A stretch of DNA of 64,000 bases from a virus. The notes below the pieces were generated by a model, which made no database searches, was not told the DNA's origin, and saw only the letters and a program-made list of their open reading frames with translations. The stretch spans positions 30,390-94,389 of IMG/VR virus record IMGVR_UViG_3300017917_002740, one strand, 5' to 3'. The translations under genes and the position numbers were made by a program. This document shows, in pieces, positions 30,474 to 59,637 of this stretch; positions within the stretch are counted from its first letter, which is position 1, and the number at the start of each line of letters is the position of its first letter.

Positions 30474-31574
30474 ATGAATACCTATACGCAAATTGAACCT
30501 TTTGGTACACCGCATTTTCAAATTACCTGGGAAGCTACTTTAAAATGCAATTTGGATTGCAGCTATTGTAGCCCCAATGATCACAACAATAAGATACCTC
30601 ATCCAAAATTAGAGGACTGTCTTAAGACTGTAGACTTTCTTTTGGAATATGTCGATGTGTATATGCAGAACAAAAATCCTGCTCATCGAAATGCAGGCTT
30701 CAATGTGTTCGGCGGTGAAAGCCTTTTCCATCCAGACATTGTAGAAATACTGACTTACATTAAAGAACAGCATAAAAAATACGAACATCGCTGGACTATG
30801 GCAGTGCAGACTGTGACAAACGCTGTAGTCAAAGAAAAAATTTGGAAAGAAATTGTTCCTTTGATTGATTACTTCACTGTAAGTTATCATAGCGAAGCAA
30901 CCGTAGAACAGCAAGATTTGGTAAGACAAAATTTATTAATGCTGAAAGCAAACAACAAAAGATTTACCTGTTCTATATTGATGCATGCAGGACGATGGGA
31001 CAATTGTCAAAGCATGATACAATGGTGCAAGGACAACGATATTCCTCATCTTCCAAGACAGATAGATCACAGTTGGCATGATCTAAAATTTTGGTATAAC
31101 AAAGAACAAACACAATGGTGGAATGAACATAGAGGTATTGACACTGACATTCCCCTACACAAAAAAATTATCAATATCGTAAATTTAGACAGTCAAGGTC
31201 GTAGCTGTTGTGGAGGAACTGAGCTAAGTGTTAATGGTAATACTTCTTGTTCACAGACATACATACCAGGTAATAATTTTAAAGGCTGGAGTTGCAGTGT
31301 AAATTACTTTTTTGCCTATGTAAAACAGGTGACCAAAGAAGTATTTTTAAACAAAGATTGCATGATGAACTTTGACGGCAAAGTAGCACCTATAGGAACT
31401 GTAGATCAAGGTGCTGAAATCATAGCAGATCTAAAAAGAAATTTTGCCAACAATACTATGCCTGTGGTTACCTGTGCCAAGTCTAAGTGCTGGTGTGGAT
31501 TGTGCGCTCCTAAGGCGCACGACAGATCGACTTTCGATACTATGATGGAAAAGTATGTCACAGATACCGTTTGA
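30474..31574 (+). CDS. Radical SAM protein with C-terminal Cys-rich (SPASM/twitch-like) domain
   Basis: CNLDCSYC, FGGES, and C-terminal C..CAKSKCWCGLC. Confidence 0.9.
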   Translation: MNTYTQIEPFGTPHFQITWEATLKCNLDCSYCSPNDHNNKIPHPKLEDCLKTVDFLLEYVDVYMQNKNPAHRNAGFNVFGGESLFHPDIVEILTYIKEQHKKYEHRWTMAVQTVTNAVVKEKIWKEIVPLIDYFTVSYHSEATVEQQDLVRQNLLMLKANNKRFTCSILMHAGRWDNCQSMIQWCKDNDIPHLPRQIDHSWHDLKFWYNKEQTQWWNEHRGIDTDIPLHKKIINIVNLDSQGRSCCGGTELSVNGNTSCSQTYIPGNNFKGWSCSVNYFFAYVKQVTKEVFLNKDCMMNFDGKVAPIGTVDQGAEIIADLKRNFANNTMPVVTCAKSKCWCGLCAPKAHDRSTFDTMMEKYVTDTV

Positions 31575-32526
31575 TAAAATAATTAGATTCGGTCAACAGA
31601 CAATGTTAGACACTGATTTATTTTCAGTAAGCTGGATCCTGGGTAGATTCTGTAACTACAAGTGTTCATATTGCTGGCCTTATGCTCGTACAGATAAACC
31701 AGATCACTATGAGCTTGAAGTTTATCAAAGAACCATAGATGAAATTAAAACACAGTCTCGAGCAAATGGATTTACAAGATTTCATTGGAGTTTCAGCGGA
31801 GGTGAGCCCACAGCTTATAAACAATTTTTAGAAGTTGTTCGTCATCTTGACGACGGAGCAATAACACCCTATCAAAGCATACACATGACTACCAATCTTT
31901 CGCCCGGAACAAAGTGGTGGAAGTCTTGGTGTCAAGCCACAGAAGTATTACAGCGTAGAAGCATCACGGCCAGCTATCATGCAGAACATGCCAAAGAAGA
32001 TGAGTTCGGAGACAAGTGTCTAAAACTAATGAATGAAAATGTCTTTGTCACAGTTAATCAAGTTATGGTTCCTGATCAGTTCTATGAAACTTTAGAACGC
32101 TGCTATAGACTAAAATCCAGAGGAATAAATGTAACTCTAAAACCACAGAGCGATCCTACTGCCAGTTTTGTAGTCAGTGGCTACACCGATGAAATGCTAA
32201 GGATAATGCAAGAAGAATTCCAGCAACAGGTCAAGGGTGAAAATCTTTACCAAATTAGACTGTCAGACGGTACGCAAGATTATTATATAGATCAAGCAGA
32301 AAGATTCAATGCTTTTGGTTTTAACCGTTTTCAAGGTTGGAGTTGCAATAGTGGCTATCAAAGTGTTATAATTAGAGAGAATGAGGTTAAAAGATCTTAC
32401 AGTTGCCACGATAAACCTTTAGGAACTCTAACTGAAGGGTTTAAACTTTTCGAGCAACCAGCAAAATGTATTACTCCGAGCTGTGTAAGTTCGGCAGACA
32501 GCAAGGTACCAAAAAGTAAAATATGA
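31555..32526 (+). CDS. Radical SAM protein (twitch-like C-terminus)
   Basis: CNYKCSYC, SGGEP and TTN motifs. C-terminal CNSG..C..CITPSC. Confidence 0.9.
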   Translation: MSQIPFDKIIRFGQQTMLDTDLFSVSWILGRFCNYKCSYCWPYARTDKPDHYELEVYQRTIDEIKTQSRANGFTRFHWSFSGGEPTAYKQFLEVVRHLDDGAITPYQSIHMTTNLSPGTKWWKSWCQATEVLQRRSITASYHAEHAKEDEFGDKCLKLMNENVFVTVNQVMVPDQFYETLERCYRLKSRGINVTLKPQSDPTASFVVSGYTDEMLRIMQEEFQQQVKGENLYQIRLSDGTQDYYIDQAERFNAFGFNRFQGWSCNSGYQSVIIRENEVKRSYSCHDKPLGTLTEGFKLFEQPAKCITPSCVSSADSKVPKSKI

Positions 32527-33044
32527 TTCATGTATTCGGTGATAGCTTTTCTATAGATAACAGTAACGATAGTTGGGTTACTCGCTTGAATGCAACCTCG
32601 TATTCTACCTGCGGAGCAAGCGAATACAGAATATGGAAAACTTATCAAAGCAATAAACACCTAATTAAACCAAATGACACTGTTTTATTTTGTCATACTT
32701 TTCCGTATAGAGTTTTTTTAAAAAACAACAGTACATTGTTAAGCAGATTGTTACCTTCTCATCCTTTTTGCGATATCATCATCAATGATATCATTGCTAA
32801 GAAAGAATCAAAATTTATAAGTGTTTTAAAAACTATATGGGACGAAGATTATTTTTATGACACTTACCTGTTACTTGTTAATGATTTAAAGAAAGTTCCT
32901 AATAGCTTTCACTTTACTTTTTTTGAATCTACTCTAATGCATTCATTTTACGAAACATGGATAAACAACAAAGGAAACATCAATCATTTAACTGTAAGTG
33001 GTAACAATGCTGTTTATAGGGACATTAAAAAGTGGATAGATTAA
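32523..33044 (+). CDS. SGNH/GDSL-like protein
   Basis: VFGDSF..GAS..NHL. Confidence 0.55.
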   Translation: MIHVFGDSFSIDNSNDSWVTRLNATSYSTCGASEYRIWKTYQSNKHLIKPNDTVLFCHTFPYRVFLKNNSTLLSRLLPSHPFCDIIINDIIAKKESKFISVLKTIWDEDYFYDTYLLLVNDLKKVPNSFHFTFFESTLMHSFYETWINNKGNINHLTVSGNNAVYRDIKKWID

Positions 33045-33652
33045 TAGCATTCGGATCATCATACACATACGGCGACGGATTACCAGATACGTTTCCCGAG
33101 AATACTACGCCAAGCAAACTGGCATGGCCAAGTATTTTAGCCGCTGAACTTAATTTGGAATGTGTTAATATGAGTTCGAGGGGTGCAAGTAATAGAAAAA
33201 TATGGCACGACATTCTGCATTTTAAATTTGAACCTAATGATGTTGTTTTTATATTATGGGCATTTCCAAATCGACATACTATTTTTGATTCTAAGTTAGA
33301 ATTTAGAAACTTATTGCCGTCAGGAGTTAATAAATCAAACGAAGCTGATGCCTATTATCGCTATATCTATACCGAGTATGATTCGGCATTGACTACTAAA
33401 CTGTATATCAATCACGCCAACCAACTGATATTGTCTAATAACATACAGGTACATCATTTATTACTGAACATAGAAAGCAAAGACCTTTTTGAATTAGGTG
33501 GCCAGAAGATAGAATTTATTCCTTTGGCATTTGAAGATTCGTATAAAACAGCATATCCTTTAAGTATTGATAAACTACATCCGGGTGAAAAATGTCATAG
33601 AGCGTTTGCCAAAGATATTTCGCAGTGGTTAAAACAGCAAGGATTATTTTAA
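33032..33652 (+). CDS. SGNH/GDSL-like hydrolase or acyltransferase
   Basis: AFGSSYTYG..GASN..DKLHPG..H. Confidence 0.65.
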   Translation: MDRLIAFGSSYTYGDGLPDTFPENTTPSKLAWPSILAAELNLECVNMSSRGASNRKIWHDILHFKFEPNDVVFILWAFPNRHTIFDSKLEFRNLLPSGVNKSNEADAYYRYIYTEYDSALTTKLYINHANQLILSNNIQVHHLLLNIESKDLFELGGQKIEFIPLAFEDSYKTAYPLSIDKLHPGEKCHRAFAKDISQWLKQQGLF

Positions 33653-33653
33653 T

Positions 33654-34250
33654 ATGCAAATTGATTTAAAACATCTACACCACTGGATGCAGGCTATAAG
33701 ACAAAGTCCGGATCCTATAAGAACAATGGACGCATTCTGGCAAGGGCAATTAAACAGTAAAGTATGGCTGATTAATGAATTAAGAAAACATGTCGACAGA
33801 TTTGTTACTGTGGACATACACGGTGGTTGGGTTGGAGTGTTAGCCAGTCTTATGTTCCAAAGTAATTTGCCTATAAAATCTATTCGAAGCATAGACATTG
33901 ATCTTCAGTGCGAACCTTTGGCCAAAGAAATGAATAGGTTAGAAGAAACATCAGGTAGGTTTACAGCCGTTACTGCAGATATGTGTGATATTGTTAGCGA
34001 TGCTGATGTAGTTGTTAACACCAGCTGTGAACATATAACACAAGAACAATACGATCGATGGTTAGCTGGATTGAAGTCAACCAGTATATTGGTATTACAG
34101 AGTAATAATTTTCCCATACCAGAACATGTAAGAATAGTAGAGAGCTTGCAGGAGTTTATAGATCAGTCCGATGTAGAAGTACTATGGTCAGGCGAAATGC
34201 AGTTGCACCTTTATACCAGATATATGATTATAGGAAAGAAGCGTGTTTAA
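33654..34250 (+). CDS. Class I SAM-dependent methyltransferase-like protein
   Basis: DIHGGWVG, SIDID, ADM and NTSCEH motifs. Confidence 0.65.
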   Translation: MQIDLKHLHHWMQAIRQSPDPIRTMDAFWQGQLNSKVWLINELRKHVDRFVTVDIHGGWVGVLASLMFQSNLPIKSIRSIDIDLQCEPLAKEMNRLEETSGRFTAVTADMCDIVSDADVVVNTSCEHITQEQYDRWLAGLKSTSILVLQSNNFPIPEHVRIVESLQEFIDQSDVEVLWSGEMQLHLYTRYMIIGKKRV

Positions 34251-35343
34251 TTTCAAAGAATTAAAAAGTGTACACATAGAGATATCTAACAGATGTCAAG
34301 CATCTTGTCCTATGTGTCCAAGAAATATAAACAGCGGCATAGAGAATCCATTAATTAAAAATGCTGATTGGACTCTGGAAGAATTTAAAACTGTGTTCAA
34401 TCAGGAAGTATTGGCGCAGTTAGAAAAGATCTCCTTCTGCGGAACGTTTGGCGATCCAATGATGAATGGCGATCTTATTGCTATGTGTCAATATGTAACT
34501 GATAATGCTCCCCATATGGACATAAGAATACACACCAACGGCAGCGCCAGAAATATCAAATGGTGGAAACAGTTGGCCAAATCACTGCCTAAAAAGCATC
34601 TTATTGAATTTGGCATAGATGGGTTGACAGATACTCATCATTTACACAGAGTAGGAACCAACTTTGAAAGAATAATCGATCATGCTCGAGCAGTAATTGA
34701 AGAAGGTGCCAAAGCTTCTTGGTTGTTTATTAGATTCAAGCACAATGAACACCAGGTAGAACAGGCTCGTGCTATGAGCAAAGAACTGGGATTTGATCAG
34801 TTTGTACTAAAAAATACAAGAAGATTTACAGACGAAAAATTTATAGTGTTGGATAGAGATGGTAAGTTTTCACACTTCTTAGAAATGCCCACGGGTAATG
34901 TGGTAAACTTTGTCAACAAAAAAGATCTCGAAGATCATCAGTCGTGGCCCAATGCCACTGACATCAACTGTTTTGCACTGGATTCAAATGAAATTTATAT
35001 CGATGCCAATTTCACTGTGATGCCTTGCTGTATTATTGCTGCCTTTTTGTATACAAATTATGACAATGAAATACAAAAACAGCACGGACTCTATGACGCC
35101 GCAACATCTGTAAATAGTGTAGGCGATCAGATACAAAAACAAGTTTACGAAATAATCGATGAACTTGGCGGATTGAACAGTTTGGATGCAAGACAGCAGG
35201 GAATAAAACAGATCATCAACAGTGATCGATGGCAGACTATATGGCATGAAAAGTGGAACACCAACACTTCGGCCTGCTGTACTGTAATGTGCAGTGCAGA
35301 CAGTCCTTACACTAAACTAAAAGAACAACTAATTACTGAATAA
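34243..35343 (+). CDS. Radical SAM/SPASM protein
   Basis: CQASCPMC, GTFGDP, HTNG, GIDG, and C..YIDA..PCC..C..C. Confidence 0.9.
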   Translation: MFNFKELKSVHIEISNRCQASCPMCPRNINSGIENPLIKNADWTLEEFKTVFNQEVLAQLEKISFCGTFGDPMMNGDLIAMCQYVTDNAPHMDIRIHTNGSARNIKWWKQLAKSLPKKHLIEFGIDGLTDTHHLHRVGTNFERIIDHARAVIEEGAKASWLFIRFKHNEHQVEQARAMSKELGFDQFVLKNTRRFTDEKFIVLDRDGKFSHFLEMPTGNVVNFVNKKDLEDHQSWPNATDINCFALDSNEIYIDANFTVMPCCIIAAFLYTNYDNEIQKQHGLYDAATSVNSVGDQIQKQVYEIIDELGGLNSLDARQQGIKQIINSDRWQTIWHEKWNTNTSACCTVMCSADSPYTKLKEQLITE

Positions 35344-36434
35344 TGTATACCTATAAAGAAATAAGAGTGCTGCACGTAGAATTGACATCTAACTGTCAAG
35401 CATCCTGTCCTATGTGTGCCCGCAATCATCATGGTGGTTTAGAGAATCCACTTCTAAAAGTCAATGATATACCGTTAGAAGTATTCAAGAAAATTTGTCC
35501 CGGTGACTTTATCAAACAATTGCACACAATTACCATGTGCGGTAATTTTGGTGATCCTATTTTACATAAAGACTTAATCAAAATTGTTGAATATATCAAA
35601 CAAGAAAACGTAGGCATACACATAGACTTACACACTAACGGCGGTGCGAGAACTGTTAAATGGTGGAGAGAGTTGGCCAAGGCATTGCCCGAGCGTCATG
35701 TCGTACAGTTTGGTATAGACGGACTGGCTGACACTCATCACTTGTATCGAGTAGGAACAAGTTTCGATAAGATCATTGAAAATGCCAAAGCCTTTATCAG
35801 TGAAGGCGGTAAGGCAAGATGGAATTTTATAACCTTCAAACACAATGAACATCAACTGGAGGCCTGCAAACAGATGGCCAAGGATTTAGGGTTTGATAGT
35901 TTCTATGAAAAACAGACCAGCAGATTTATCGGTAATCCTTGGTTTGATGTCTACGATAAAAATGGTAATACCACTCATAGATTAGAAGGGCCCACTGAAC
36001 AAAAATTAATTTTTGTTGATAGAAAAACTGTGGAAAATTACAAAGAAGTTATAGCTCGTGCTAAAATAGTCTGTGAAGTAGAAGAACAAAAAAGTGTTTA
36101 CATAGATGCATTAGGTTATCTGTTCCCTTGTTGCTTTGTAGGTGCAACACCTTATATACATTCCTATGAACATCAGTTAGTCCATGCTTTTAGATTAGAT
36201 AGCCAAAACAGCCTTAACCAGTTATTGGATAAGTTTGGCGGTATAGAATACTTTAATTTGCAAAACAGATCTATACAAGAAATCATAGACAGTGACAATT
36301 GGCAAACTCTTTGGAATCAAAGTTTCGAAGGTAATAAATTACACGTCTGCGCCAGAACTTGCGGCAAGTTCGAGGAACCAACGATCAGTCAGTGTAGAGA
36401 TCAATTTTTAGATTTAGAGAAATTCAATGAATAA
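35343..36434 (+). CDS. Radical SAM/SPASM protein (tandem paralog of the previous gene)
   Basis: CQASCPMC, GNFGDP, HTNG, PCC and CARTC. Confidence 0.9.
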   Translation: MYTYKEIRVLHVELTSNCQASCPMCARNHHGGLENPLLKVNDIPLEVFKKICPGDFIKQLHTITMCGNFGDPILHKDLIKIVEYIKQENVGIHIDLHTNGGARTVKWWRELAKALPERHVVQFGIDGLADTHHLYRVGTSFDKIIENAKAFISEGGKARWNFITFKHNEHQLEACKQMAKDLGFDSFYEKQTSRFIGNPWFDVYDKNGNTTHRLEGPTEQKLIFVDRKTVENYKEVIARAKIVCEVEEQKSVYIDALGYLFPCCFVGATPYIHSYEHQLVHAFRLDSQNSLNQLLDKFGGIEYFNLQNRSIQEIIDSDNWQTLWNQSFEGNKLHVCARTCGKFEEPTISQCRDQFLDLEKFNE

Positions 36435-37845
36435 AACCTTTTGGCTACAGCCTGAAACTACCCAATTGGGTGATTGGCAAAAACAAATAACTGATCTCAC
36501 AGGCAGTCCCAGTTTCTGTGTGCTGCCCTGGATACACTTGGCCACACGTCCCAATGGTGATATGCGTATATGTTGTGTGGCCAATGCCAGTGGTGCAGAC
36601 AGCGGAGACTATACCGTAGGTTTGGTCAAGATGGAAGATGGTCAGCCCGCTAACTTTGGTCATAATTTACCTACAGAAGCATTTAACAATGACTACATGA
36701 AATCTGTACGTAAAACAATGTTGGCTGGAGAAGTACCTGCCAGTTGTTTGAAATGCTATGAAGAAGAACAACAGGGTATAGCCAGTAAACGAATATGGGA
36801 AACAGGCACGTGGCATCTGCAAGAACAGATCGATATCAAAGAACTAATAGCTGAAACCACAGAAGATGGCACAGTACCATATAATCTTCGATACTTAGAT
36901 CTTAGATTAGGACATACCTGCAATTTAAAATGTATCATGTGTTCACCTCATGACAGTAGTATGTGGGTCCCTGAGCATAAGAAAGTGTTTCCTATATTCC
37001 AAAGTCCGCTGATCAAAAAACAAATGGATTGGGATCCCAATAAGTTTGACAATAATTGGCATGAAAATCCCAAGTTCTGGGAAGAAATATTCGAACAGAT
37101 TCCTAACATCAGGCAGTTGTATTTTGCAGGTGGAGAGCCTTTATTGATCAAAGAACACAAACTGTTTCTCAAAGAAATTATACGTAGAGGCTATGCCAGC
37201 CAGATAGGTCTAAGATACAATACCAATGGCATTTTAGTCAATGAAGAAATTATAGAAATCTGGGAACACTTTAAAAAGGTCAAAGTGGGCATTAGTTTAG
37301 ATGCCATAGGAGATCGAGTAAACTATATTAGATATCCCACAGAGTGGTCTGTGGTAGAACAAAATCTCTGGAGATTAGAAAACACCAGTGATAAAATACA
37401 GACCAATATTGCTCTGGCTGTACAGATATTAAACATCAAACATGTTCCAGATTTCATCAAGTGGAAAGTTCGCAGCGGATTTAAAAAATTAAATTTTGAT
37501 ACCAATGCCGCAGGTCAAGTTGCTGGCGGCGGATTAGTGGGTGTTCACTTGTTGTGGATTCCTACTTGGCTAAGTCTACGTGTATTGCCCAAAGAAGATA
37601 AGGCAGAAGTTAGAGAACTATTTGTAGAACTGCAACAATGGTTATGGGACAACTATACCAAAGATCCCGAATTCTGGGAAAAGAATCCGTATGGATGGAA
37701 ACGTTGGGAAGGTATACTGGATTGGATGGATGCAGAAGATCACACAAATCTACTACCAGACTTTCGAGAGTATATCGCGACCATGGACGCTCAACGTGGT
37801 ACAGACTTTAAAACTGTATTTCCGGAATTAGCTCATCTGCTATGA
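36427..37845 (+). CDS. Radical SAM protein with N-terminal twitch/SPASM domain
   Basis: N-terminal CVLPW..ICC..CLKC, followed by CNLKCIMC, AGGEP and YNTN. Confidence 0.9.
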   Translation: MNKTFWLQPETTQLGDWQKQITDLTGSPSFCVLPWIHLATRPNGDMRICCVANASGADSGDYTVGLVKMEDGQPANFGHNLPTEAFNNDYMKSVRKTMLAGEVPASCLKCYEEEQQGIASKRIWETGTWHLQEQIDIKELIAETTEDGTVPYNLRYLDLRLGHTCNLKCIMCSPHDSSMWVPEHKKVFPIFQSPLIKKQMDWDPNKFDNNWHENPKFWEEIFEQIPNIRQLYFAGGEPLLIKEHKLFLKEIIRRGYASQIGLRYNTNGILVNEEIIEIWEHFKKVKVGISLDAIGDRVNYIRYPTEWSVVEQNLWRLENTSDKIQTNIALAVQILNIKHVPDFIKWKVRSGFKKLNFDTNAAGQVAGGGLVGVHLLWIPTWLSLRVLPKEDKAEVRELFVELQQWLWDNYTKDPEFWEKNPYGWKRWEGILDWMDAEDHTNLLPDFREYIATMDAQRGTDFKTVFPELAHLL

Positions 37846-42782: not shown

Positions 42783-42786
42783 GATA

Positions 42787-51176: not shown

Positions 51177-51217
51177 GCAATATTTATTGGCAGTAATAAC
51201 AGCATATAAATATTGCA
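51176..51217. promoter_or_regulatory. Divergent late promoters forming a 12-bp inverted repeat
   Basis: tgcaatatttat (51176-87) and ataaatattgca (51206-17). An exact T4 late consensus TATAAATA lies at 51205-12. Confidence 0.7.
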
Positions 51218-51221
51218 CACC

Positions 51222-51926
51222 ATGAAATTCCATTATTATTACAATCAAATTCCCGGAGGCGAGCCCTGGAGAAACAATTTGATTTACACCAGTTTGATCA
51301 GCGAGGACAAAAAAACTTTTGTCCAATGGTATCACAACGACAGCGAATATCACAAAGGCATGAATGAAGTTGTTGATCCAGCATTGATGAATGAAAAGTG
51401 GAGCAGAGAACTCTGCTTTCTTAATTACATGAATCGATGGCACCCAGAATCTGTGCCAGAAATTTTAGATATTGATTTATTGGAAAAAAAGATTTATTTA
51501 AAAATTGACGGTGTGGATCTATGGCAACGCAGTTTAGACAACCACAACTGCGCTTTTGATCAGATAGTGCCTGATTGGCAGGAACAGATGTTGGCCATAT
51601 TTAAAAATCATATAGATCTAAATCTATGGAAATACAGCCTTCACCCCAGCAGTTATTTCATTGTAGATGGTCAGTTAAAAAGCATAAACTACTTTTTCAC
51701 TTACAGCTCAGATGACGGTCCTATCACGGTCAGAGATCATCTCAGCCATATCAGCGAAGGTCGTAGAGCAGAAATGAAACCCAAGACAGAAGCCATGGGC
51801 ATAGACTGGGACACACCTCAAAGTCTGTATACCATGCAGATGTTGGCCTTTGAAAGTTTTAGAAGTAACTATCCCACGGACTTTATAGATCGAGCCAAGA
51901 GTCTTTATGACCACCTCAAAGATTAA
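51222..51926 (+). CDS. Protein-kinase-like fold protein (paralog of 43486..44184)
   Basis: Shared motifs NLIYT.LIS.D.K.F, REL..L, PDW..QML and KxSLxPxxYF..GQLK. Confidence 0.5.
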   Translation: MKFHYYYNQIPGGEPWRNNLIYTSLISEDKKTFVQWYHNDSEYHKGMNEVVDPALMNEKWSRELCFLNYMNRWHPESVPEILDIDLLEKKIYLKIDGVDLWQRSLDNHNCAFDQIVPDWQEQMLAIFKNHIDLNLWKYSLHPSSYFIVDGQLKSINYFFTYSSDDGPITVRDHLSHISEGRRAEMKPKTEAMGIDWDTPQSLYTMQMLAFESFRSNYPTDFIDRAKSLYDHLKD

Positions 51927-53919
51927 ACACTTTTATCTGTTTACCAAAGACAGCTATGGTACAAAAACCGTGTCTGTGCCATTGCTTTGGTGTAGCATGA
52001 AAACCTACTACGAAGAACAAAGTGCAAAAAGCGCAGAGTGGCAGTGGCACGATCCTTTTATAACCAGACGTTCTGATGCGGAGATATTTGCAGAGTTAGA
52101 ACGTGATCCTCCTGATGTTGCTGGCTTCAGTGTCTATGTGTGGAATGAGGTATACATGGATCAGCTGGCAGCAACGGTAAAACAGCTTTATCCTAACTGC
52201 TTGATCATCTACGGAGGCCCACAGCAGAATACCAAACACAATGAAAATTATTTCGAAGAAAAGCCTTGGGTAGATATTGTGTTCCCCAGCGATGTCTACG
52301 GAGAGATAGTGATCAAAGAAGTGTTGGACAATTACCCCGTACAAGACATACGGTCTATACCCACTGCCTACTATCAAAATGCCGCAGGACTAACAGCAGA
52401 AAGCGGCATACCCATAGACAAGCGTGGGTTTCAATGGCCTCACAATATTTTTAAATCTCAAGAGCAGTATATTTTACCCACACTACAATCTGCTAAAAAC
52501 CAAGATTACGACATAGTGGCTCTCTACGACACAGCACGAGGCTGTCCTTATCGCTGCATCTATTGCGAGTGGGGAGGCGGTACACATACCAAGGTGGTCA
52601 AGAAACCATTCGGCACGGTGCTTGACGAATTGACATGGTTGGCTGCAGTAGGAGAAATCACAAGAATTGAAATCACTGATGCCAACTTTGGTATTATGAG
52701 CATAGACGTTGAAATTGCTCGACACTTAGCTGAACTAAAAAACACCTACGGATATCCCAAAAACGTTGATATTACCAATGCTAAAAACAACATTGATCGA
52801 GTATTGGACATCATGGAAATATTTTTAGAAGCTGACATGATCAGTCAGTATATCATTCCTATACAGACACTTGATGAAACCACAAAGAAAAATATCCAAC
52901 GCACAGACATTCCATTTGAAGAACAGATCACAGGACTTGCTCGTTTAAGAAAAAACAAAAACGGTCAAAAGATGATTACATTCTTTGAGTCTATAATGGG
53001 GTTGCCAGGTGATAGTTATCAGGTCAATTGTCAGCAGATTGACACACTTTATGAACACGGACAGCCCTTGGGCAGTATGTTAAATCACACTTGGATGCTG
53101 TTACCTGAAACTCCAGCATACACGCCAGAGCTAAGACAGAAATTTAAAATCAAAACGGTCAAGAAGACCTTGGATTTTTTTACTAAAATAAAACCCGGAC
53201 GAGCAGTAACAGGTCCTATTCCAGACAACACCATGGCAGCATGGACCAACAGCTCTGTAGAAATCGTTGTGGGCACCTATAGTTATTCTACAGAAGAATG
53301 GGTCAAGATGCTGAGGTTAAACAATTTGGTCATTGCTGGAGAACGCATAGGTATCAATGATTATATTCTCAAGTACATGGTCCGTGAACATGGATTGACA
53401 CCTTCACAGGTTTTAACTGACATCATAGACTATGCCTACATCCAAGGATTTAAAGATGCTGATGTAAATGAATTTTTTAAAATGGAGCATCTACACATAA
53501 TACAATGGCTGTATCAAGACAATTTGGATTCTGGTATAGACATAGGAGAGGATTTTCCATTCCTGATCCCCTATTATGCATTTTTGCTATTAATGATCTT
53601 AGGCAATGGATCAGTGATCACTGAATTAACCGACATGCTGGCCGAGAAATACCATGATGAAAAAATCCAAGATTTGGGCAGATACATTTCAAAAAGCCTA
53701 TTAGGCACTGAATATCAAGGCACATGTTCTTTCATTACGGCATATGATTGGTTGAATTATTTTGCCAATGATAGTAAACTTATAAAGGGCACATATCAAT
53801 ATCAGACCGTAGACCCTGCACACGATTGCAGAGATTTACAGGAATATTATTGTTGGATGCTGGATCGTCACAACGAAAATCAAAGTCTTGTGGCCCAAGT
53901 GAGATTAAATGACATTTAA
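51907..53919 (+). CDS. B12-binding radical SAM protein
   Basis: N-terminal PPDVAGFSVYVWN..IYGGPQ (cobalamin-binding-like), then RGCPYRCIYCEW, DANFG and GLPG. Confidence 0.88.
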   Translation: MTTSKIKHFYLFTKDSYGTKTVSVPLLWCSMKTYYEEQSAKSAEWQWHDPFITRRSDAEIFAELERDPPDVAGFSVYVWNEVYMDQLAATVKQLYPNCLIIYGGPQQNTKHNENYFEEKPWVDIVFPSDVYGEIVIKEVLDNYPVQDIRSIPTAYYQNAAGLTAESGIPIDKRGFQWPHNIFKSQEQYILPTLQSAKNQDYDIVALYDTARGCPYRCIYCEWGGGTHTKVVKKPFGTVLDELTWLAAVGEITRIEITDANFGIMSIDVEIARHLAELKNTYGYPKNVDITNAKNNIDRVLDIMEIFLEADMISQYIIPIQTLDETTKKNIQRTDIPFEEQITGLARLRKNKNGQKMITFFESIMGLPGDSYQVNCQQIDTLYEHGQPLGSMLNHTWMLLPETPAYTPELRQKFKIKTVKKTLDFFTKIKPGRAVTGPIPDNTMAAWTNSSVEIVVGTYSYSTEEWVKMLRLNNLVIAGERIGINDYILKYMVREHGLTPSQVLTDIIDYAYIQGFKDADVNEFFKMEHLHIIQWLYQDNLDSGIDIGEDFPFLIPYYAFLLLMILGNGSVITELTDMLAEKYHDEKIQDLGRYISKSLLGTEYQGTCSFITAYDWLNYFANDSKLIKGTYQYQTVDPAHDCRDLQEYYCWMLDRHNENQSLVAQVRLNDI

Positions 53920-54481
53920 GATTGTACCGTGGTCCGAGGAACTTGACAGCACACTGACTGCTTTTTACGCAGAAGCGGATCGCCGCGGATTTGCAAATAA
54001 TGCCAGTCGACGTATGTTGGTTGACAGCATTGCACGTGAACGTGAGTGGGCTGTTTGGATTCTTTATTATAATGACACAGCCGTGGGTTCAGTGGCTGCA
54101 CATAGTTTTCCAGAAATGGGAGAACGCTGTTATCGTATTGCAGCTCGTACCTGTGTGTTCACAGACCTGCTGCCAGGAGCATATGGATCTGCGCTTAGAA
54201 CAAAAAGCGTGATCACTGAACATCAAAACCCCACAGCACAATTTTTAATTCCTGCCTGTCTAAGATGGACTCCAGCAAACAGCAGATTGTTCATCACATC
54301 TAATCAAAGCACCGTGGGAACACAGCGTAGGGTGCATAATATTTTTGGACCTTTGTTAGAACGACAAGGCACCATGCAGCGTATACAAGACTTAGAATAT
54401 CGAGGAACCACACAGACGGTGTGGCAGTTTTTCCCTCACGTATTTTATGAACAGATGAACAAGTATCCCAGATGGCAATGA
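53909..54481 (+). CDS. Hypothetical protein, possibly GNAT fold
   Basis: Pattern VWILYY..AVG.VAAH..YRIAAR. Confidence 0.45.
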   Translation: MTFKIVPWSEELDSTLTAFYAEADRRGFANNASRRMLVDSIAREREWAVWILYYNDTAVGSVAAHSFPEMGERCYRIAARTCVFTDLLPGAYGSALRTKSVITEHQNPTAQFLIPACLRWTPANSRLFITSNQSTVGTQRRVHNIFGPLLERQGTMQRIQDLEYRGTTQTVWQFFPHVFYEQMNKYPRWQ

Positions 54482-56538
54482 AAAAAGTCTACCTACTATA
54501 CAGAGACACTGCGGAAGAGTCATTTCTTTCTCTGCCTTTGCTGTGGTGTTCAAGCAAGACCTATTATGAAGAAAACAGCTCAAAAGCCAACGAATGGTCG
54601 TGGGGATATCCTTACTTTGGCAAAACAGAAACTGCTGAAGAAATTTTAGCAACGCTGCGAGCAGATCCTCCTGATGTGGTAGGATTCAGCATCTATGTAT
54701 GGAACGAACAATTTTTTGATAGTGTCGCAGAGCAGGTCAAAAAAGAGTTTCCCAACTGCTGGATAGTCTACGGCGGTTTCCAACCCAGTGTCAAACACAA
54801 TCCAGATTTCTTTAGACAAAAGCCTTGGGTAGATGTTGTGGTGCCCGGCAATGTCTATGGTGAGCCTGTGATACAAGAATTATTAGACATTTATCCTAAT
54901 AAAAATTTCAGCGAAGTCATACATGTCTACTATCCAGATGCTGACGGTAATAGAATGATCAGCGACAAAACTTTTGAGAAAAAAGAATTCCGTTGGCCCA
55001 ACAATATCTTTAAGAGCCAAGAACCTTATCTGTTAGAACGAGTTGAAAGAGATAGAGGTAGGCTCAGCATCACTGCGTTTTATCAAACCAGCAGAGGCTG
55101 CCCTTATCAATGTATCTATTGTGATTGGGGTGGTGGCACCAATACCAAGACCATCAAAAAGCCTTGGGAAATAGTCAAAGACGAAATGCTATGGTTAGCA
55201 TCCGTGGCCAAAGTAGACCGTATAGAATTAACTGATGCTAACTTTGGTATCAATGCCATTGATCTTGAAACTGCCAGATACTTTGTGGAACTTAAAAAGA
55301 CCTATGGTTATCCCAAGATCTTAGACTACGAACCTGCTAAGAATCATACCAAGCGTGTGGTGGAGATCGCAGAAACATTGGCCAATGTAGACGCATTGAC
55401 CTTTCACCGTGTGAGCTTACAGAGTTTAGATCCCGTCGTACAAAAAAATGTCATAAGAATCAATGCTCCGTTAGAAGAACAGATCAGCGGCATGAAGTAC
55501 ATCGAACGCATCAGCCAAGGTCGTGTGCCTTTGTATATTGAATGTATGTTGGGCCTGCCTGGAGATAGTTATCAGGCTATCTGTAATCAAATTGACACGG
55601 TCTATGGATACGGTGTAGCACCTGGTTGGATACACAACTATGGTTGGATGCTGTTGCCCGAAAGTCCTTCATATAGTCCCGAAGGCAGGGCCAAACATAA
55701 ATTGGTCACGGTAAAGAAATGGATCAATCATAATGCCAAGCTAAAGAAAGGATTTGTCATAGAGGACAATAGTTCTTTGAATTTATTAGATCCGTTTGAA
55801 ACCAAGTATGTTGAAACGGTAGTGGGCACATATAGTTACACGCAAGAAGATTATATGCAGATGTTTAGATTGACTAACTTCTGTATCGCCACTCACATCA
55901 CTGGGGTTAATGATTACCTAATCAGATATATTGCGGATACGCACAATGTCAAACCCAGCGAAATACTCACAGAAATTTTAAATTTCATAGACGGAAAAAA
56001 TTTCGAGGATCAGGAATTGGCCAAATTGTTTGATCTGCAAAAAAGAGTTCTGCGTAATTGGATGTACGATGATCATAGCGGCAGTGGCATTGACCTTGAT
56101 CCCGAGTTTCCTTTGATGTTGGCACACCATGCATTTTTCACGATGTCTATTATGTTGCACATAGATAGTTTTTACAAAGAAATCTGTGATTTGCTAAGTT
56201 CGAAATATCAAGACACGAGAATACAAGATTTGGGAATATATCTAAAAAATTCTATCATTGATTATGAATACCAGCAAGGTAGAACGTTCGTTACTAATTA
56301 TGATTGGTCGAATTATTTTAGTAACCAGCAGACTTTGGAATTAGGCCACTATCAATATCAGTGTAATGATGAGTTTGAATTAGTTGCCAAAGATAAAAGT
56401 CAGCGATTATTAGAATATTATAAATTTGCTGCAGGTAATAATCTTAATCCTGCTGTGAAAATCTCTAAGGATATAAAGTTAATTAGTCCAGTCTTGACTA
56501 TGCCAAGTGGGTTTGACCAACGACTCTATATCAGTTAG
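54472..56538 (+). CDS. B12-binding radical SAM protein (paralog of 51907..53919)
   Basis: PPDVVGFSIYVWN, RGCPYQCIYCDW, DANFG and GLPGD. Confidence 0.88.
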   Translation: MAMKKVYLLYRDTAEESFLSLPLLWCSSKTYYEENSSKANEWSWGYPYFGKTETAEEILATLRADPPDVVGFSIYVWNEQFFDSVAEQVKKEFPNCWIVYGGFQPSVKHNPDFFRQKPWVDVVVPGNVYGEPVIQELLDIYPNKNFSEVIHVYYPDADGNRMISDKTFEKKEFRWPNNIFKSQEPYLLERVERDRGRLSITAFYQTSRGCPYQCIYCDWGGGTNTKTIKKPWEIVKDEMLWLASVAKVDRIELTDANFGINAIDLETARYFVELKKTYGYPKILDYEPAKNHTKRVVEIAETLANVDALTFHRVSLQSLDPVVQKNVIRINAPLEEQISGMKYIERISQGRVPLYIECMLGLPGDSYQAICNQIDTVYGYGVAPGWIHNYGWMLLPESPSYSPEGRAKHKLVTVKKWINHNAKLKKGFVIEDNSSLNLLDPFETKYVETVVGTYSYTQEDYMQMFRLTNFCIATHITGVNDYLIRYIADTHNVKPSEILTEILNFIDGKNFEDQELAKLFDLQKRVLRNWMYDDHSGSGIDLDPEFPLMLAHHAFFTMSIMLHIDSFYKEICDLLSSKYQDTRIQDLGIYLKNSIIDYEYQQGRTFVTNYDWSNYFSNQQTLELGHYQYQCNDEFELVAKDKSQRLLEYYKFAAGNNLNPAVKISKDIKLISPVLTMPSGFDQRLYIS

Positions 56539-57855
56539 ACCGATGTCCTGAGCTCTAACTGCTTGATTAACTGAAATATCTACAAAGCCGCTGGCAGCTC
56601 GTCTTGTAAAAATAGTTCGAGCATCAGGACATTGCTCCTGTAGTTTTTTAATAAAACTATTTTCGCTGTGTATTCTATTCTTAACACTTCTTACGGTAGC
56701 TGTTCCTATGTAGTTAAAAACATTGGTTAGGTTAACAACTGTATTGGGTATGTTCTCTATCCAAGAAATATCTGTTTCTGTGTTTAACAGATCGCACCAA
56801 TGATATTCAAATTTTACAGTTTGAATAATCTCTTTCCATACAGATCGATCGATATCTGTAAACTCAGAAGATCCACAATAGGGAACATGCTCGCTGATCA
56901 TAGAAAACTTATTTTTATGATATTCCTCGGCAAAATCTTTGTAGTTAGAGCCATCCCAGTTTTCTACGAGATACTTAATGTATTCTAAAGTTAAAAAACT
57001 GTAATCATAAAATTTAACCTTGGTATTAGAATTAAAATCTAACATAGTCAAATAATGTATCCAATTTAATCCGCTGGCAGATACAACCAATTGTTGAACA
57101 GGACCTTGCATGTTAACAGGCACTATAGTTTCGCTGTTGTTTAGATATATGGCTGTACCGCTACAAAAACCTTGACGAGCATACAAAAATCCCACTTGAT
57201 CCTGATAGCTGGAATATTCTGGATAATAATATCTTTTATTATTTCTTAATCCTTCATCAAATACTTTTATGGGTAACTTATTATCTAATGCTAAAGATAT
57301 TAGATTCCATCCGTGTGCTCGATGAGAATATTCAAAGATTGTACTACCAGATTTAATCCATAAAGGAGTGTAATTGTCATGGTAGTTTTCTTGACTTCTT
57401 CTTGGTATAGTTTGTTGATGACTATCAAAAAATGACCGCTGACCAACTGCTGGACAATTTAATTTTTTATAAGTGGCGAGATTAACAACATAGCATTGTT
57501 CGTGCAATTCATAATAAAACTCGTTTCGATCTAATATATGTCCTGCAATAAAAAAATCTTCTTGACATAATTTTTCTACACAGTCAAACCAATCATAGCT
57601 GTTAACAAACTCTAATCCTGTAGACAACACTACAGCATTTTTGGCTTCGGTATTTGCGGCAGCTCGTAGTAGTGTATCTTCATCTGCAGAAACTAATACA
57701 GTGTATCCTAATATAGTAATGTTCTGTACAGTCCAGTCGCTGATATTTTTAACAGCTTCTTGATTTTCTTTACAGGCACTAATTCTATCAACTATACAGA
57801 ATATAATATGATCTTTAAGCTCTGAGGAATTTTCTTTAAATTTAACTACGTTCAT
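56479..57855 (-). CDS. Hypothetical two-domain protein
   Basis: 458 aa. The N-half has GHILD..YELHEQC. The C-half is Rossmann-like (ASG..FYD..DLL..NLTNVF). Confidence 0.7.
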   Translation of the reverse strand: MNVVKFKENSSELKDHIIFCIVDRISACKENQEAVKNISDWTVQNITILGYTVLVSADEDTLLRAAANTEAKNAVVLSTGLEFVNSYDWFDCVEKLCQEDFFIAGHILDRNEFYYELHEQCYVVNLATYKKLNCPAVGQRSFFDSHQQTIPRRSQENYHDNYTPLWIKSGSTIFEYSHRAHGWNLISLALDNKLPIKVFDEGLRNNKRYYYPEYSSYQDQVGFLYARQGFCSGTAIYLNNSETIVPVNMQGPVQQLVVSASGLNWIHYLTMLDFNSNTKVKFYDYSFLTLEYIKYLVENWDGSNYKDFAEEYHKNKFSMISEHVPYCGSSEFTDIDRSVWKEIIQTVKFEYHWCDLLNTETDISWIENIPNTVVNLTNVFNYIGTATVRSVKNRIHSENSFIKKLQEQCPDARTIFTRRAASGFVDISVNQAVRAQDIGLTDIESLVKPTWHSQDWTN

Positions 57856-58570
57856 AACTTCTTACAATAAGTTCAGCAAAGTCCTGTTTTCGATAGCCGT
57901 ATACTCCAAAGCCTATCATATGAATGCGATCTTTAGAACTAAAATTGATCACAGCATGTCTATGACGTATGTTGATCAAAAATGCTCGATTAGGCTTGAA
58001 CGGAACAATGCCGAACCCTTCTAACACCATGTCGCAGTTCTTGGGATGAATCAATGCCACGTTCACAGGACATCCTAACTCCAAGGGATCGTAGTCAATG
58101 GGTTCACCGGGTATGTAACCACGACCGGGTGCATCGCTGTGGGGAGCAATATAGCCGCCAGCTGCCACTCGCATAAATCTAACTCTTTTGTATTTTTCTG
58201 CAGGAAATGATTTCCAGAACTCTGTGGCTGCAGGAACTTCGTTGCTGAGTTCAGTCCACTTGTAGGTTTCGTCAGTTTCTTCTGAGACATACTCGGGCCA
58301 GTTCTGTGTAGCATCAGTTCTTATGCCGTGGATACAACAACTATCCCAACCTGAGCTTTCGCCTTCTCGATGTGGCACATAATATTTTTCTGCAGCAAGA
58401 CATTCATGATAAAGTTCTGGAACATCTATGTCTAATTCTAACCAAGCAAAGTTAGGGTTATTAACGATCCAACGAGCTTTATCTATCGTAGATAAATCTT
58501 TAGGTAGCTCCGGAGGAACATACTTTAAATTTTTATTCGCATTATAAAAATCTAATACTTCTCGATTCAT
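57842..58570 (-). CDS. AspH-like Fe(II)/2OG oxygenase
   Basis: RVRFM..GGYIAPHSD..HAVIN..RIHMI. Confidence 0.8.
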   Translation of the reverse strand: MNREVLDFYNANKNLKYVPPELPKDLSTIDKARWIVNNPNFAWLELDIDVPELYHECLAAEKYYVPHREGESSGWDSCCIHGIRTDATQNWPEYVSEETDETYKWTELSNEVPAATEFWKSFPAEKYKRVRFMRVAAGGYIAPHSDAPGRGYIPGEPIDYDPLELGCPVNVALIHPKNCDMVLEGFGIVPFKPNRAFLINIRHRHAVINFSSKDRIHMIGFGVYGYRKQDFAELIVRSYERS

Positions 58571-59637
58571 TGTGGCAACTTAAAATCTTTGATATTTGCT
58601 GTGTTTACAAAGTCTATGATTTCTTCTTCATAGCGTTTTGCATATTCTTCTTTGAGATACGGTTGCCAAAAATCTTTTTGTAGATTGCTGTAGTCGTGCT
58701 GTATACGATAACACAATCTATCTTTGATATCACCTAATCTGCGATGAAGTGTAATTGAATTATCAAACAGACAGAAGTCCCCTTCGTTGGCATACCAATG
58801 ATCATAGATATATTGATCAACAAATAGTCCTCGATTTATTTCGTCGAACACTGCTTGAGATTCTTTTTCAGTCATACCTTTGATGCTGTGTATGGTATTA
58901 ATAGAATAATGTAGGCCAACTATTCCTCCAGGACTGCGCATGACAATAGGTATTTCAACACCGTCAACTGGACACATATTGGCATGCATGACTTCATCTT
59001 GTTCTATTCTTAGACCTGGATTAATTCTGCCTGGTGTAAACTTGTGTATCAAAATCATTTCATCTAATTCGCTGCGAAAGCTGTTAGAAACTGATTCGTA
59101 ATAATCCGGGGTAGTTAAAAATCCTGTTGACGAACCTACTACATTTTTTGCAGCCAACAATGCTACGCCGGGTGTAAATGTTAGTGTACCACTTTCATTT
59201 GAGTGCCATAGCAGTTCACCTTCGGCGAACATTCCTAAAGGATGGCCATTTTCATCACGTTGTCCAGTTACACGCATAATATGTCGTCCTGTGATAGGAT
59301 CTACTTCTTGCATGCGAGCAATATTAGATAATCTAATTTTATCAATTTCTTCAATTTCAGAACTATTCTCCAAGCTGAGTTTTACTACTTGGCTCCAAGT
59401 GTATTGCGGATATTTTTTGAGGATGTTATATCTAATACCATAGCGAGTGTCACCCCATTTCATTAACCACTCGGGTTGATTTTGCCATTTGAGATTACAG
59501 TCTCTAATAATAGTTACAAAATTTTCTAAATGTAATCGACCGATTTCCATCCACTCTTCGTCCGAAAGGTGATCAAAATCAACACCGTCGATGAATATAC
59601 CAAATCGTCCTAAACCTGGTATTTTTGAAATCTTCAT
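58567..59637 (-). CDS. TauD/TfdA-family dioxygenase
   Basis: LLWHSNE, T.F, H.W..GD..LFDNSITLHRR..R..YR. Confidence 0.85.
   Translation of the reverse strand: MKISKIPGLGRFGIFIDGVDFDHLSDEEWMEIGRLHLENFVTIIRDCNLKWQNQPEWLMKWGDTRYGIRYNILKKYPQYTWSQVVKLSLENSSEIEEIDKIRLSNIARMQEVDPITGRHIMRVTGQRDENGHPLGMFAEGELLWHSNESGTLTFTPGVALLAAKNVVGSSTGFLTTPDYYESVSNSFRSELDEMILIHKFTPGRINPGLRIEQDEVMHANMCPVDGVEIPIVMRSPGGIVGLHYSINTIHSIKGMTEKESQAVFDEINRGLFVDQYIYDHWYANEGDFCLFDNSITLHRRLGDIKDRLCYRIQHDYSNLQKDFWQPYLKEEYAKRYEEEIIDFVNTANIKDFKLPQ

Follow-up and report, generated by a model that had tools for sequence, protein, structure and literature searches.

We analysed a 64,000-nt window of viral DNA, one strand of positions 30,390-94,389 of IMG/VR record IMGVR_UViG_3300017917_002740, with particular attention to a 29-kb island of enzyme genes at window positions 30474-59637. 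An earlier note on this DNA had described the island as about 31 tightly packed genes rich in radical S-adenosylmethionine (SAM) enzymes and Fe(II)/2-oxoglutarate (2OG) oxygenases, and had proposed that it forms a dedicated late biosynthetic system. The parent contig is a 94,389-base IMG/VR fragment with an estimated completeness of 27%, and its source is a T4-type jumbo phage of roughly 350 kb (range about 330-380 kb). A gp23-type T4 capsid gene was found in relatives; among cultured phages it comes nearest, with 67-72% identity, to those of Vibrio phage 2.275.O, Sinorhizobium phage Phosso, PA5oct and 121Q-like phages. One 331.6-kb relative (hereafter G001) is 93% complete, and two metagenome contigs bearing the island gene g19 reach 381 kb and 371 kb. 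Throughout, synteny, gene-occurrence and copy-number counts refer to 80 fetched loci, and the presence or absence of single Pfam families (PF05402, PF00483, PF00535, PF01370, PF01761, KdsA and KdsB) to 21 related records.

Genes and transcription blocks of the island

The island holds 31 open reading frames (ORFs) that overlap or abut, with inner gaps of -68 to +41 nt, in agreement with the earlier count. Exactly 13 of their products carry the CxxxCxxC motif, and all 13 match PF04055, 11 of them above the gathering cut-off and two below it (g24, 22.7 bits; g28, 24.3 bits); the rest of the 94,389-base contig has no further radical SAM match. The subclasses previously named among the 13 were recovered as well: two B12-binding proteins (g26 and g28), three with an N-terminal twitch domain (g08, g09 and g11) and one with a CxxC..CPEHG N-terminus (g21). 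The radical SAM genes are the following.

30474-31574 (+): g01, radical SAM, opens block A (PF04055, E 8.5e-7; CNLDCSYC)
31555-32526 (+): g02, radical SAM, STM4011-like below cut-off (PF04055, E 4.5e-11; NF038073, E 4e-11)
34243-36434 (+): g06 and g07, radical SAM paralogues (PF04055, E 5e-9 and 1.6e-13; g07 with a weak SPASM match, E 3e-4)
36427-39083 (+): g08 and g09, N-terminal-twitch radical SAM (NF033640, 398 and 353 bits against a cut-off of 170)
39060-39956 (-): g10, radical SAM, weakly STM4011-like and QueE-like (PF04055, E 1e-11)
39949-41262 (-): g11, N-terminal-twitch radical SAM (NF033640, 321 bits)
46568-47455 (-): g20, radical SAM, paralogue of g24 (PF04055, E 1e-8; CNLTCDNC)
47452-48489 (-): g21, radical SAM with an N-terminal HMPTM-type zinc ribbon, CxxC..CPEHG (PF23545, E 4.7e-15; PF04055, E 1.2e-16)
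50289-51177 (-): g24, radical SAM (PF04055, E 1.2e-4; CNLTCENC)
51907-53919 (+): g26, B12-binding radical SAM (PF04055, E 1e-8; B12-binding, E 3.8e-4)
54472-56538 (+): g28, B12-binding radical SAM, paralogue of g26 (B12-binding, E 3e-6; PF04055, E 4e-5)

The three twitch proteins are full-length members of NF033640 (321-398 bits); SPASM precedes the radical SAM core, spanning residues 5-69 in g09 and 26-86 in g11. Others fall into the loose groups g01/g02/g10, g06/g07 and g20/g24, whose family hits are all below threshold; g10, for instance, scores 41.8 bits against the QueE model TIGR03963 (cut-off 260). Likewise, g21 is TrsS-like (E 1e-29) and Tes-like (E 5e-24), in both cases below the cut-offs. 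The best family for g26 and g28 is KedN5 (NF033712; E 9e-50 and 4e-48), with 169.5 and 164.1 bits against a cut-off of 700, and their B12-binding Pfam scores are 20.7 and 27.5 (cut-off 32.1); the class B cobalamin-dependent architecture fits both proteins, and membership of the KedN5 family fails. A pattern search of IMG/VR with g26 gave zero relatives.

Eight Fe(II) oxygenases (g14, g16, g17, g18, g19, g22, g30 and g31), the number previously reported, were recognized by Pfam, motif or fold; Pfam cut-offs were exceeded by g14, g30 and g31. Two more lie just past the island.

42821-43489 (+): g14, AspH-like Fe/2OG oxygenase, opens block C (PF05118, E 8.5e-5)
44144-45765 (g16 and g17 +, g18 -): small (~170-aa) cupin-type Fe(II) oxygenases of one family
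45765-46568 (-): g19, predicted Fe(II)/2OG dioxygenase of an unnamed family
48486-49127 (-): g22, 2OG-FeII_Oxy_5-type oxygenase, opens block D (PF13759, E 1.8e-5, 25.5 bits against a cut-off of 27)
57842-58570 (-): g30, AspH-like Fe/2OG oxygenase (PF05118, E 1.2e-6)
58567-59637 (-): g31, TauD-family Fe/2OG oxygenase, opens block H (PF02668, E 1.7e-11)
61506-62643 (-): two further 2OG-FeII_Oxy_5-type oxygenases, past the fibre gene (PF13759, E 8.8e-4 and 2.9e-7)

By its predicted fold and the motif H177-x-D179...H233/R246, g19 is an Fe(II)/2OG dioxygenase: Foldseek matched its AlphaFold2 (AF2) model (pLDDT 72.6) to proline cis-4-hydroxylase and PHD2 at E about 1e-5, and in a 31-sequence alignment of distant relatives only H177, D179 and H233 are invariant, R246 being near-invariant. 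Pfam domains are missing from most distant relatives of g19; one relative is a fusion with a Rieske oxygenase. The family of g16 to g18, aligned to that of g19 by hhalign at E 1.7e-4, keeps P90, H97, D99, R115, H154 and N158 invariant (HxD...H); it weakly matches cupins and the beta-hydroxylase 7v4f, which makes its fold evidence weak.

The remaining enzyme genes and the fibre gene at the right boundary are these.

32523-33652 (+): g03 and g04, SGNH/GDSL-like hydrolases (g04 Lipase_GDSL, E 2.3e-5; g03 N-terminal GDS motif only)
33654-34250 (+): g05, conserved protein (65% identity in G001)
41195-41935 (-): g12, PP-loop ATPase with a QueC-like C-terminal Cys motif
41916-42782 (-): g13, probable fold-type-I pyridoxal phosphate (PLP) enzyme, first gene of block B
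43486-44184 (+): g15, protein-kinase-fold protein, paralogue of g25
49169-50305 (+): g23, class III (BioA-like) aminotransferase, block E (PF00202, E 7e-41; TIGR00508, E 6e-40, below cut-off)
51222-51926 (+): g25, protein-kinase-fold protein, opens block G, universal partner of g19
53909-54481 (+): g27, GNAT-like protein, belonging with g19 and g25 to the core
56479-57855 (-): g29, two domains, GT-A-like (N-terminal) and class-I-methyltransferase-like (C-terminal); AF2 pLDDT 81.6
59701-60840 (-): g32, fibre protein, right boundary of the island (Mtd_N, E 9.6e-10; Gly-zipper matches)

Several of these had been named before, and the names fared unevenly. The class III aminotransferase g23 stands on its Pfam match, the kinase-like g15 and g25 on a family profile that finds the TTK kinase domain in the PDB at E 7e-7 (although no Asp is invariant in the family alignment), and the fibre gene g32 on Mtd_N. 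For the SGNH-like pair the label holds for g04 and is carried by the motif in g03. The PP-loop and PLP labels of g12 and g13 depend on motifs together with weak hits: g12 keeps SGGADS and C208, C229, C232 and C235 invariant, with Pfam matches to QueC (E 0.03) and NAD_synthase (E 0.02), and g13 keeps SLSKGLG with K188, a stretch covered by a weak threonine-aldolase match. The GNAT label of g27 is a lead only, drawn from the viral clusters nearest to it in the Atlas, of which one bears the name N-acetyltransferase and another shows PF00583 in 20% of its members; Pfam and PDB searches with g27 gave zero matches. The methyltransferase label of g05 could not be verified, the protein having zero Pfam, NCBIfam or PDB-sequence matches and showing only a GxGxG-like DIHGGW motif. 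More generally, Pfam searches to E 10 returned nothing for g13, g15-g19 and g27 and chance-level or weak matches for g12, g25 and g29, and PDB profile searches returned nothing for g19, g27 and g05.

In g29, the VIA matches of residues 10-228 are to the PBCV-1 capsid glycosyltransferase (Z 10.7) and the glycosyltransferase domain of LH3 (Z 10.4), and those of residues 228-437 to EgtD and NNMT (Z 9.1-9.5). The family consensus keeps a DED motif, a related viral cluster is fused to AspH, and g29 and g30 are again found as a pair in phage loci as well as in four loci of bacteria.

Island genes are arranged in eight transcription blocks on alternating strands. As previously claimed, each block start (8/8) has a TAAATA box, placed 4-31 nt upstream of the start codon, and sigma70-like sites are at chance level in comparison with shuffled sequence. 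The box has only 31 copies in the 64 kb, both strands counted, and likewise precedes a giant gp9/10-like baseplate gene, two fibre genes and a SOD-IscU-IscA operon. By analogy with T4, it would mark late transcription in the phage.

30458-30463 (+): TAAATA of block A, 10 nt ahead of the g01 ATG
42787-42792 (-): TAAATA of block B, first gene g13
42811-42816 (+): TAAATA of block C, first gene g14
49133-49138 (-): TAAATA of block D, first gene g22
49157-49162 (+): TAAATA of block E, g23
51181-51186 (-): TAAATA of g24, as TAAATA-TTGC-ATG, about 3 nt from the ATG that opens MDPKF
51205-51212 (+): box of block G, TATAAATA, 9 nt ahead of the g25 ATG at 51222
59663-59668 (-): TAAATA of block H, first gene g31, within a hairpin

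The longest ORFs of g24 (50289-51443, -) and g25 (51213-51926, +) overlap by 231 nt. Because of the positions of the boxes, this nominal overlap is probably a start-codon artefact, with the true starts at 51177 (not 51443) for g24 and at 51222 for g25; the hydrophobic stretch of 89 aa that the long g24 ORF would add N-terminally, across g25, is then probably not made. Most of the late-type boxes at block starts (30458, 42787-42816, 49133-49162, 51181-51212 and 59663) sit just 3-10 nt from the ATG with no visible Shine-Dalgarno sequence, so the corresponding mRNAs may be leaderless or nearly so. The 63-nt spacer between g32 and g31 (59638-59700) holds the hairpin (AAGCCCTTAAA...TTTAAGGGCTT) that encloses the g31 box, and it looks like an overlapping terminator and promoter.

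Relatives in phages and in Bdellovibrionota

The most conserved gene of the island is g19, found in 80/80 loci at 76-85% identity; its neighbours are far less conserved. We detected 956 close homologues of g19 in metagenomes, on contigs up to 381 kb, and the family comprises 361 clusters at 50% identity and is present on 189 IMG/VR contigs. Among the 80 loci, g25 occurs in 79, g27 in 69, g17 in 67, g08 and g11 in 61-64 (g11 in 61, at a median identity of 67%), g18 and g21 in 55 each, g14 in 52 and g10 in 47, and the gene order g27-g25-(g21)-g19-g18-g17-g15-g14-(g13)-(g12)-g11-g10-g08 is kept. In G001, all 15 radical SAM genes fall within 240-277 kb, as one 38-kb island, and four further long records carry 8 to 17 radical SAM genes each, again clustered. 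Since the order is stable in the 80 loci and the radical SAM genes cluster in five long relatives, the island is a single module, plastic but recurring, rather than a set of genes assembled by chance, which sustains the earlier proposal of a dedicated system.

Another explanation is that the genes share no common pathway and the region is a hyperplastic dumping ground in which independent auxiliary genes expand by duplication. The copy number of g17, g18, g19 and g21 varies (1 to 5 copies for the g16-g18 family, 1 to 3 for g21), cassettes are gained and lost between relatives, and hyperplastic regions are known in T4-like phages (PMC7029224, PMC3037559). We nevertheless consider such a collection of unrelated genes very unlikely, given the stable core order, the overlapping genes in translationally coupled blocks, the confinement of the G001 radical SAM genes to one island, and the occurrence of the same cassettes in bacteria.

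Genes absent from the window recur in the relatives: a B12 radical SAM protein of ~515 aa adjoining g19 (49 loci), an SDR-like protein (23 loci) and an amidinotransferase-like protein (10 loci), both of these read from sequence only, and a flavin halogenase (12 loci). The G001 island contains a carbamoyltransferase.

Among 50,697 phage records, megablast with 19.5 kb of the island and tblastn with g19, g21 and a 1303-aa fibre protein of the window found zero matches, so that g19 and g21 are without a carrier among the cultured phages searched. The corresponding search with g11 found only distant lone genes in Ralstonia phage RsoM2USA and Vibrio phages K566 and K567; RsoM2USA was rejected as a model, as no further island gene lies near its g11-like gene.

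Cellular relatives were found by scanning with an alignment of the N-twitch proteins, one genome per species. The 232 relatives come overwhelmingly from metagenome-assembled genomes (MAGs) of Bdellovibrionota, where they lie on chromosomal contigs of up to 3 Mb, often as tandem arrays; such arrays reach seven N-twitch paralogues (locus L124, 10007-19789, and other loci). Many of these loci hold a cassette of g05-, g08- (45-48% identical), g07- and g02-like (45-51%) genes, in which g05 corresponds to the C-terminal part of 413-448-aa proteins, and some add relatives of g13, g29/g30, g01 and g12. A Pfam scan of 95 neighbouring ORFs, taken in aggregate, gave GT2-type glycosyltransferases, B12 radical SAM, QueC-family and TauD proteins, a GDP-mannose-dehydratase-like epimerase and a SIS-domain protein. 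Inside the bacterial cassette there is also a ~240-aa protein with a DGD motif that recurs in six phage loci. A separate locus, L109, from a gammaproteobacterial MAG, presents 11 island-like genes in a single strand-uniform block and may itself be viral.

Candidate substrates of the island

The best explanation of the island is that it represents the T4-type jumbo version of the fibre-linked hyperplastic tailoring region of aquatic myophages. In pelagimyophages, the host recognition cluster (HRC) is a variable region of ~45 kb that combines radical SAM cassettes with fibre, glycosyltransferase and lipopolysaccharide (LPS) genes and counts AspH among its core genes (Zaragoza-Solas et al. 2020, PMC7029224); cyanomyophages carry multiple 2OG oxygenases, a carbamoyltransferase and prnA (Sullivan et al. 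2010, PMC3037559). Neither study assigns the region a function. The features by which the HRC was defined (PMC7029224) were all found here: a T4-type phage, an adjacent fibre gene, content that varies among the 80 loci, and radical SAM cassettes. Mtd_N-type fibre genes lie no more than 10 kb from g19 in at least 27 of the 80 loci. The likeness to the HRC and to the cyanomyophage hyperplastic region thus extends to variability, junction with a fibre gene, radical SAM proteins, AspH/2OG oxygenases, a glycosyltransferase-like protein, carbamoyltransferase and halogenase. Unlike the HRC, however, the island belongs to a jumbo phage (about 330-380 kb) in which psbA was not found, its 13 radical SAM genes in 29 kb are far denser, canonical glycosyltransferase and LPS genes are scarce, there is a fixed g19-g25-g27 core, and the phage has its own IscU, IscA and superoxide dismutase (SOD) genes. 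The island is therefore of a known kind, the fibre-linked tailoring regions; what is new is the phage lineage, the density of radical SAM genes, the g19-g25-g27 core, the scarcity of sugar genes and the Fe-S/SOD operon.

That operon lies outside the island.

17116-17673 (-): SOD of the Fe/Mn type (Sod_Fe_C, E 2e-21), with TAAATA 11 nt upstream
16728-17114 (-): IscU (NifU_N, E 2e-54)
16430-16756 (-): IscA, an A-type carrier (Fe-S_biosyn, E 4e-14)

In G001, 5 kb separate the island from the genes for IscU (91% identical) and IscA. A phage-borne Fe-S scaffold together with SOD would suit 13 multi-cluster enzymes working beside about ten oxygenases that need O2.

The earlier note had seen no precursor ORF, no non-ribosomal peptide synthetase or polyketide synthase (NRPS/PKS) and no scaffold enzyme in the island, and the searches bear this out. 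The window has no free space for a small precursor ORF, and no ORF of <80 aa is widely conserved across the 80 loci. Proteins of the PqqD-like kind that serve as recognition elements (RRE, PF05402) of ribosomally synthesized and post-translationally modified peptides (RiPPs) were found in 0/21 related records, in which the controls matched, and are absent from the island protein hits; a (CHx[ST])n tail of two or more units was found in no frame of the 94-kb contig (27% of the genome) or of any compared locus, L001-L190 among them. The lack of a small ORF, an RRE and a Cys-His-tail protein is evidence against a RiPP. There is no NRPS/PKS among the island Pfam matches, and dehydroquinate/2-deoxy-scyllo-inosose (DHQ/DOI) synthase (PF01761) is absent from all 21 records; inositol-phosphate synthase was not searched. 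The absence of a DHQ/DOI synthase and of a sugar-1-phosphate nucleotidyltransferase (PF00483, 0/21 records) is evidence against a scaffold encoded by the phage. The aminotransferase, the PLP enzyme, the QueC-like amidotransferase and the GT-A-like protein make the substrate lean towards the small-molecule or sugar type over a RiPP-type peptide. The carbamoyltransferase, amidinotransferase-like, SDR-like, halogenase and epimerase genes of the relatives, together with the glycosyltransferases around the bacterial cassettes, point to a small polar molecule derived from the host; the epimerase family (NAD epimerase/dehydratase, PF01370) exceeds the cut-off in 11/21 records, though not in the contig studied here.

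We tentatively favour, with somewhat less than even confidence, a late cytoplasmic pathway that edits a sugar-like metabolite supplied by the host and attaches the product to a virion component, probably the fibres. The substrate would most likely be a nucleotide-sugar or a similar small polar molecule. On it, the radical SAM enzymes would perform C-H chemistry, including B12-dependent C-methylation, and the Fe/2OG enzymes hydroxylation, while g23 and g13 would transaminate, g12 would amidate at the expense of ATP and g27 would acylate. Transfer to the virion might be carried out by the GT-A-like g29 with the AspH-like g30, the likeliest target being the fibre proteins, which would be made at the same time. 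IscU, IscA and SOD would supply and protect the numerous Fe-S clusters under the oxic conditions on which the oxygenases in turn depend.

Much of the same evidence fits another substrate. AspH- and prolyl-hydroxylase-like oxygenases, a kinase fold, a GNAT-like protein, an adjacent fibre gene and the pairing of g29 with AspH favour a protein target, and the virion (fibre) proteins or a peptide might be modified directly on their side chains by hydroxylation, C-methylation or cross-linking, the kinase-fold and GNAT-like proteins acting on protein as well. Peptides are frequent substrates of SPASM/twitch radical SAM enzymes, and it is mostly RiPP maturases that the island proteins hit weakly in NCBIfam. 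The AspH-like enzymes here are g14 and g30, g19 resembles prolyl hydroxylases, g29 resembles the glycosyltransferase domain of the collagen lysyl hydroxylase LH3, the neighbouring fibre gene has the same promoter box, and the conservation of g19 is comparable to that of core proteins (IscU 91%, a phosphoesterase about 85%). Yet the same searches for a conserved small ORF, a PqqD/RRE protein and a Cys-His tail came back empty, and the aminotransferase, the QueC-like ATPase and the carbamoyltransferase, amidinotransferase-like and SDR-like proteins are small-molecule enzymes; we judge direct modification of proteins unlikely.

Several points weigh against the editing of a host-supplied sugar-like metabolite. 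Besides the missing nucleotidyltransferase, a canonical GT2 glycosyltransferase (PF00535) exceeds the cut-off in just 1/21 records, a KdsA-like gene is present in 3/21 and KdsB in 0/21. The trio of kinase-fold protein, GNAT-like protein and PHD-P4H-like dioxygenase, together with the AspH-like enzymes, fits protein substrates equally well. The structural match list of g29 is flat (Z 9-10.7, spread over GT-A and nucleotidyltransferase folds), which leaves its transferase activity a prediction, and the GNAT, PLP and PP-loop assignments are weak. The late timing leans on the analogy with T4, and the bacterial neighbourhoods were scanned in aggregate only.

All island proteins are predicted to be soluble, with zero signal peptides or convincing membrane helices, and Pfam together with membrane and signal prediction revealed neither an exporter or other membrane protein nor a resistance gene among them. 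The solubility of the proteins and the lack of an exporter weigh against work on membrane lipids and against secretion, and thus bear on two further explanations.

The first is that the phage remodels the host envelope (its LPS, its lipid A or further lipids), either to block superinfection or to alter the cell late in infection. The AspH family PF05118 also includes the lipid A hydroxylase LpxO, g03 and g04 are SGNH lipase-like, KdsA-like, GT8-like and CST-I-like genes occur at 19136-21979, g21 and the N-twitch profile match the lipid-acting radical SAM enzymes Tes and GDGT-MAS below cut-offs, and the same proposal has been made for the pelagimyophage HRC (PMC7029224). The absence of signal peptides and convincing membrane helices tells against it, as do the sporadic KdsA and the missing KdsB, and the common late-type box suits work on the virion better than the exclusion of competitors; envelope remodelling is accordingly a distinctly unlikely explanation.

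The second, to which we give the same low credence as to a collection of unrelated genes, is a free small molecule (antibiotic-like, a signal or a cofactor) made from a host metabolite and kept in the cell or freed at lysis. The enzyme palette resembles the tailoring sets of aminoglycoside and nucleoside antibiotics, with twitch and B12 radical SAM enzymes, an aminotransferase, a kinase fold and a GNAT-like protein, joined in relatives by the carbamoyltransferase, amidinotransferase-like and halogenase genes, and a nucleoside-antibiotic hydroxylase (7v4f) is among the matches of g19 as well as of the small cupins. Against such a product stand the lack of a DHQ/DOI synthase and an NRPS/PKS, the island's lack of an exporter or resistance gene, and the strong variation of gene content among relatives, unusual for a fixed product.

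Modification of nucleic acids, finally, would have g10, g12 and a PTPS/QueD protein (with FolE in relatives) make a 7-deazapurine or pterin for DNA or tRNA, which the other enzymes would elaborate. PTPS is encoded at 20767-21252, and G001 has FolE and PTPS with no canonical QueC and no radical SAM gene outside its island; g12 has QueC-like Cys motifs, g10 weakly matches QueE, the zinc ribbon of g21 is that of a pterin methylase, and on the flanks of the island lie tRNA genes and a tRNA-like RNA. However, no TGT/DpdA (PF01702) match was found in the contig or four relatives, Rfam showed no preQ1 riboswitch ahead of PTPS (21100-21500) at E up to 1, PF06508 (QueC) gave only sub-threshold matches, to g12 orthologues, and the scores of g10 and g12 are far below the family cut-offs. 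As it also accounts for only 3 or 4 of the 31 genes, this explanation strikes us as hardly likely at all.

A bolder explanation, rather unlikely in our estimation, is that a widespread T4-type jumbo clade and, separately, Bdellovibrionota possess an undescribed natural-product-like pathway, drawing on upwards of ten radical SAM enzymes and some ten Fe(II) oxygenases, that in the phages is served by their own Fe-S assembly and superoxide protection so as to run in oxic cells and yields a heavily C-methylated, hydroxylated and aminated late decoration of the fibres, a chemically new type of virion modification governing adsorption or evasion of host defence. Should the island be one pathway, it would hold one of the densest collections of C-H-activating enzymes so far known from a virus, spread over hundreds of environmental phage genomes, and would point to a new virion chemistry that possibly decides host range. 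It would also give substrates to the N-twitch radical SAM and g19 dioxygenase families and show a phage running O2-sensitive Fe-S enzymes beside O2-dependent ones by means of its own IscU, IscA and SOD. The Bdellovibrionota cassettes offer a cellular route to the chemistry of the island.

Other known systems and flanking genes

Further known systems share parts of this enzyme set. With the radical SAM family NF033640 (N_Twi_rSAM), g08, g09 and g11 share a Cys-rich twitch domain that comes before the CxxxCxxC core; here the family appears as three phage paralogues, whereas its cellular relatives are concentrated in Bdellovibrionota, often in tandem. Some viruses decorate virion proteins with paired hydroxylases and glycosyltransferases, two activities that are combined in collagen LH3 and Mimivirus L230. 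The N-terminal domain of g29, which adjoins the AspH-type g30, resembles LH3 and the PBCV-1 capsid glycosyltransferase A64R (PDB 2p72) at the level of fold only (8-10% identity), and g29 differs from both by its extra methyltransferase-like domain; a collagen-like substrate for g29/g30 was not identified.

RiPP clusters (PqqE, AlbA, SkfB, HxsB/HxsC) likewise have multiple radical SAM enzymes with auxiliary clusters in one operon, to which the island gives weak hits far below the cut-offs, with no precursor, RRE or (CHxS)n tail found. Aminoglycosides are tailored by enzymes such as BtrN, GenK/GenD1, GenB, GenP and TobZ, and the same classes occur in the island (twitch protein, B12 C-methylase, class III aminotransferase, kinase fold and acetyltransferase-like protein) or, for carbamoyltransferase and an amidinotransferase-like protein, in its relatives. 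The likeness is one of class only, in contrast to the aminoglycoside sets proper, as there is no aminocyclitol synthase (21 records), no canonical glycosyltransferase and no family-level match.

The fibre protein g32 contains a run of GNVTG/GNLTG pentapeptides and hence repeated Asn-x-Thr motifs, which are possible targets of Asn hydroxylation or glycosylation. Two tRNA genes lie just to the right of the island (62654-62822, -; Rfam RF00005, 63-65 bits). To its left, positions 19136-21979 (-) encode in succession a GT8-like protein (19136-19939), a DAHP_synth_1/KdsA-like protein (E 4e-72), the PTPS/QueD-like protein and a CST-I-like protein of the sialyltransferase type, followed by two fibre-like genes (21979-23945). 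At 8614-16080 (-) lies the gene of a 2488-aa protein with a T4 gp9/10-like N-terminus, followed by fibre or baseplate proteins of 611, 1303 and 826 aa; together they form a large adsorption apparatus that carries the same TAAATA box as the island.

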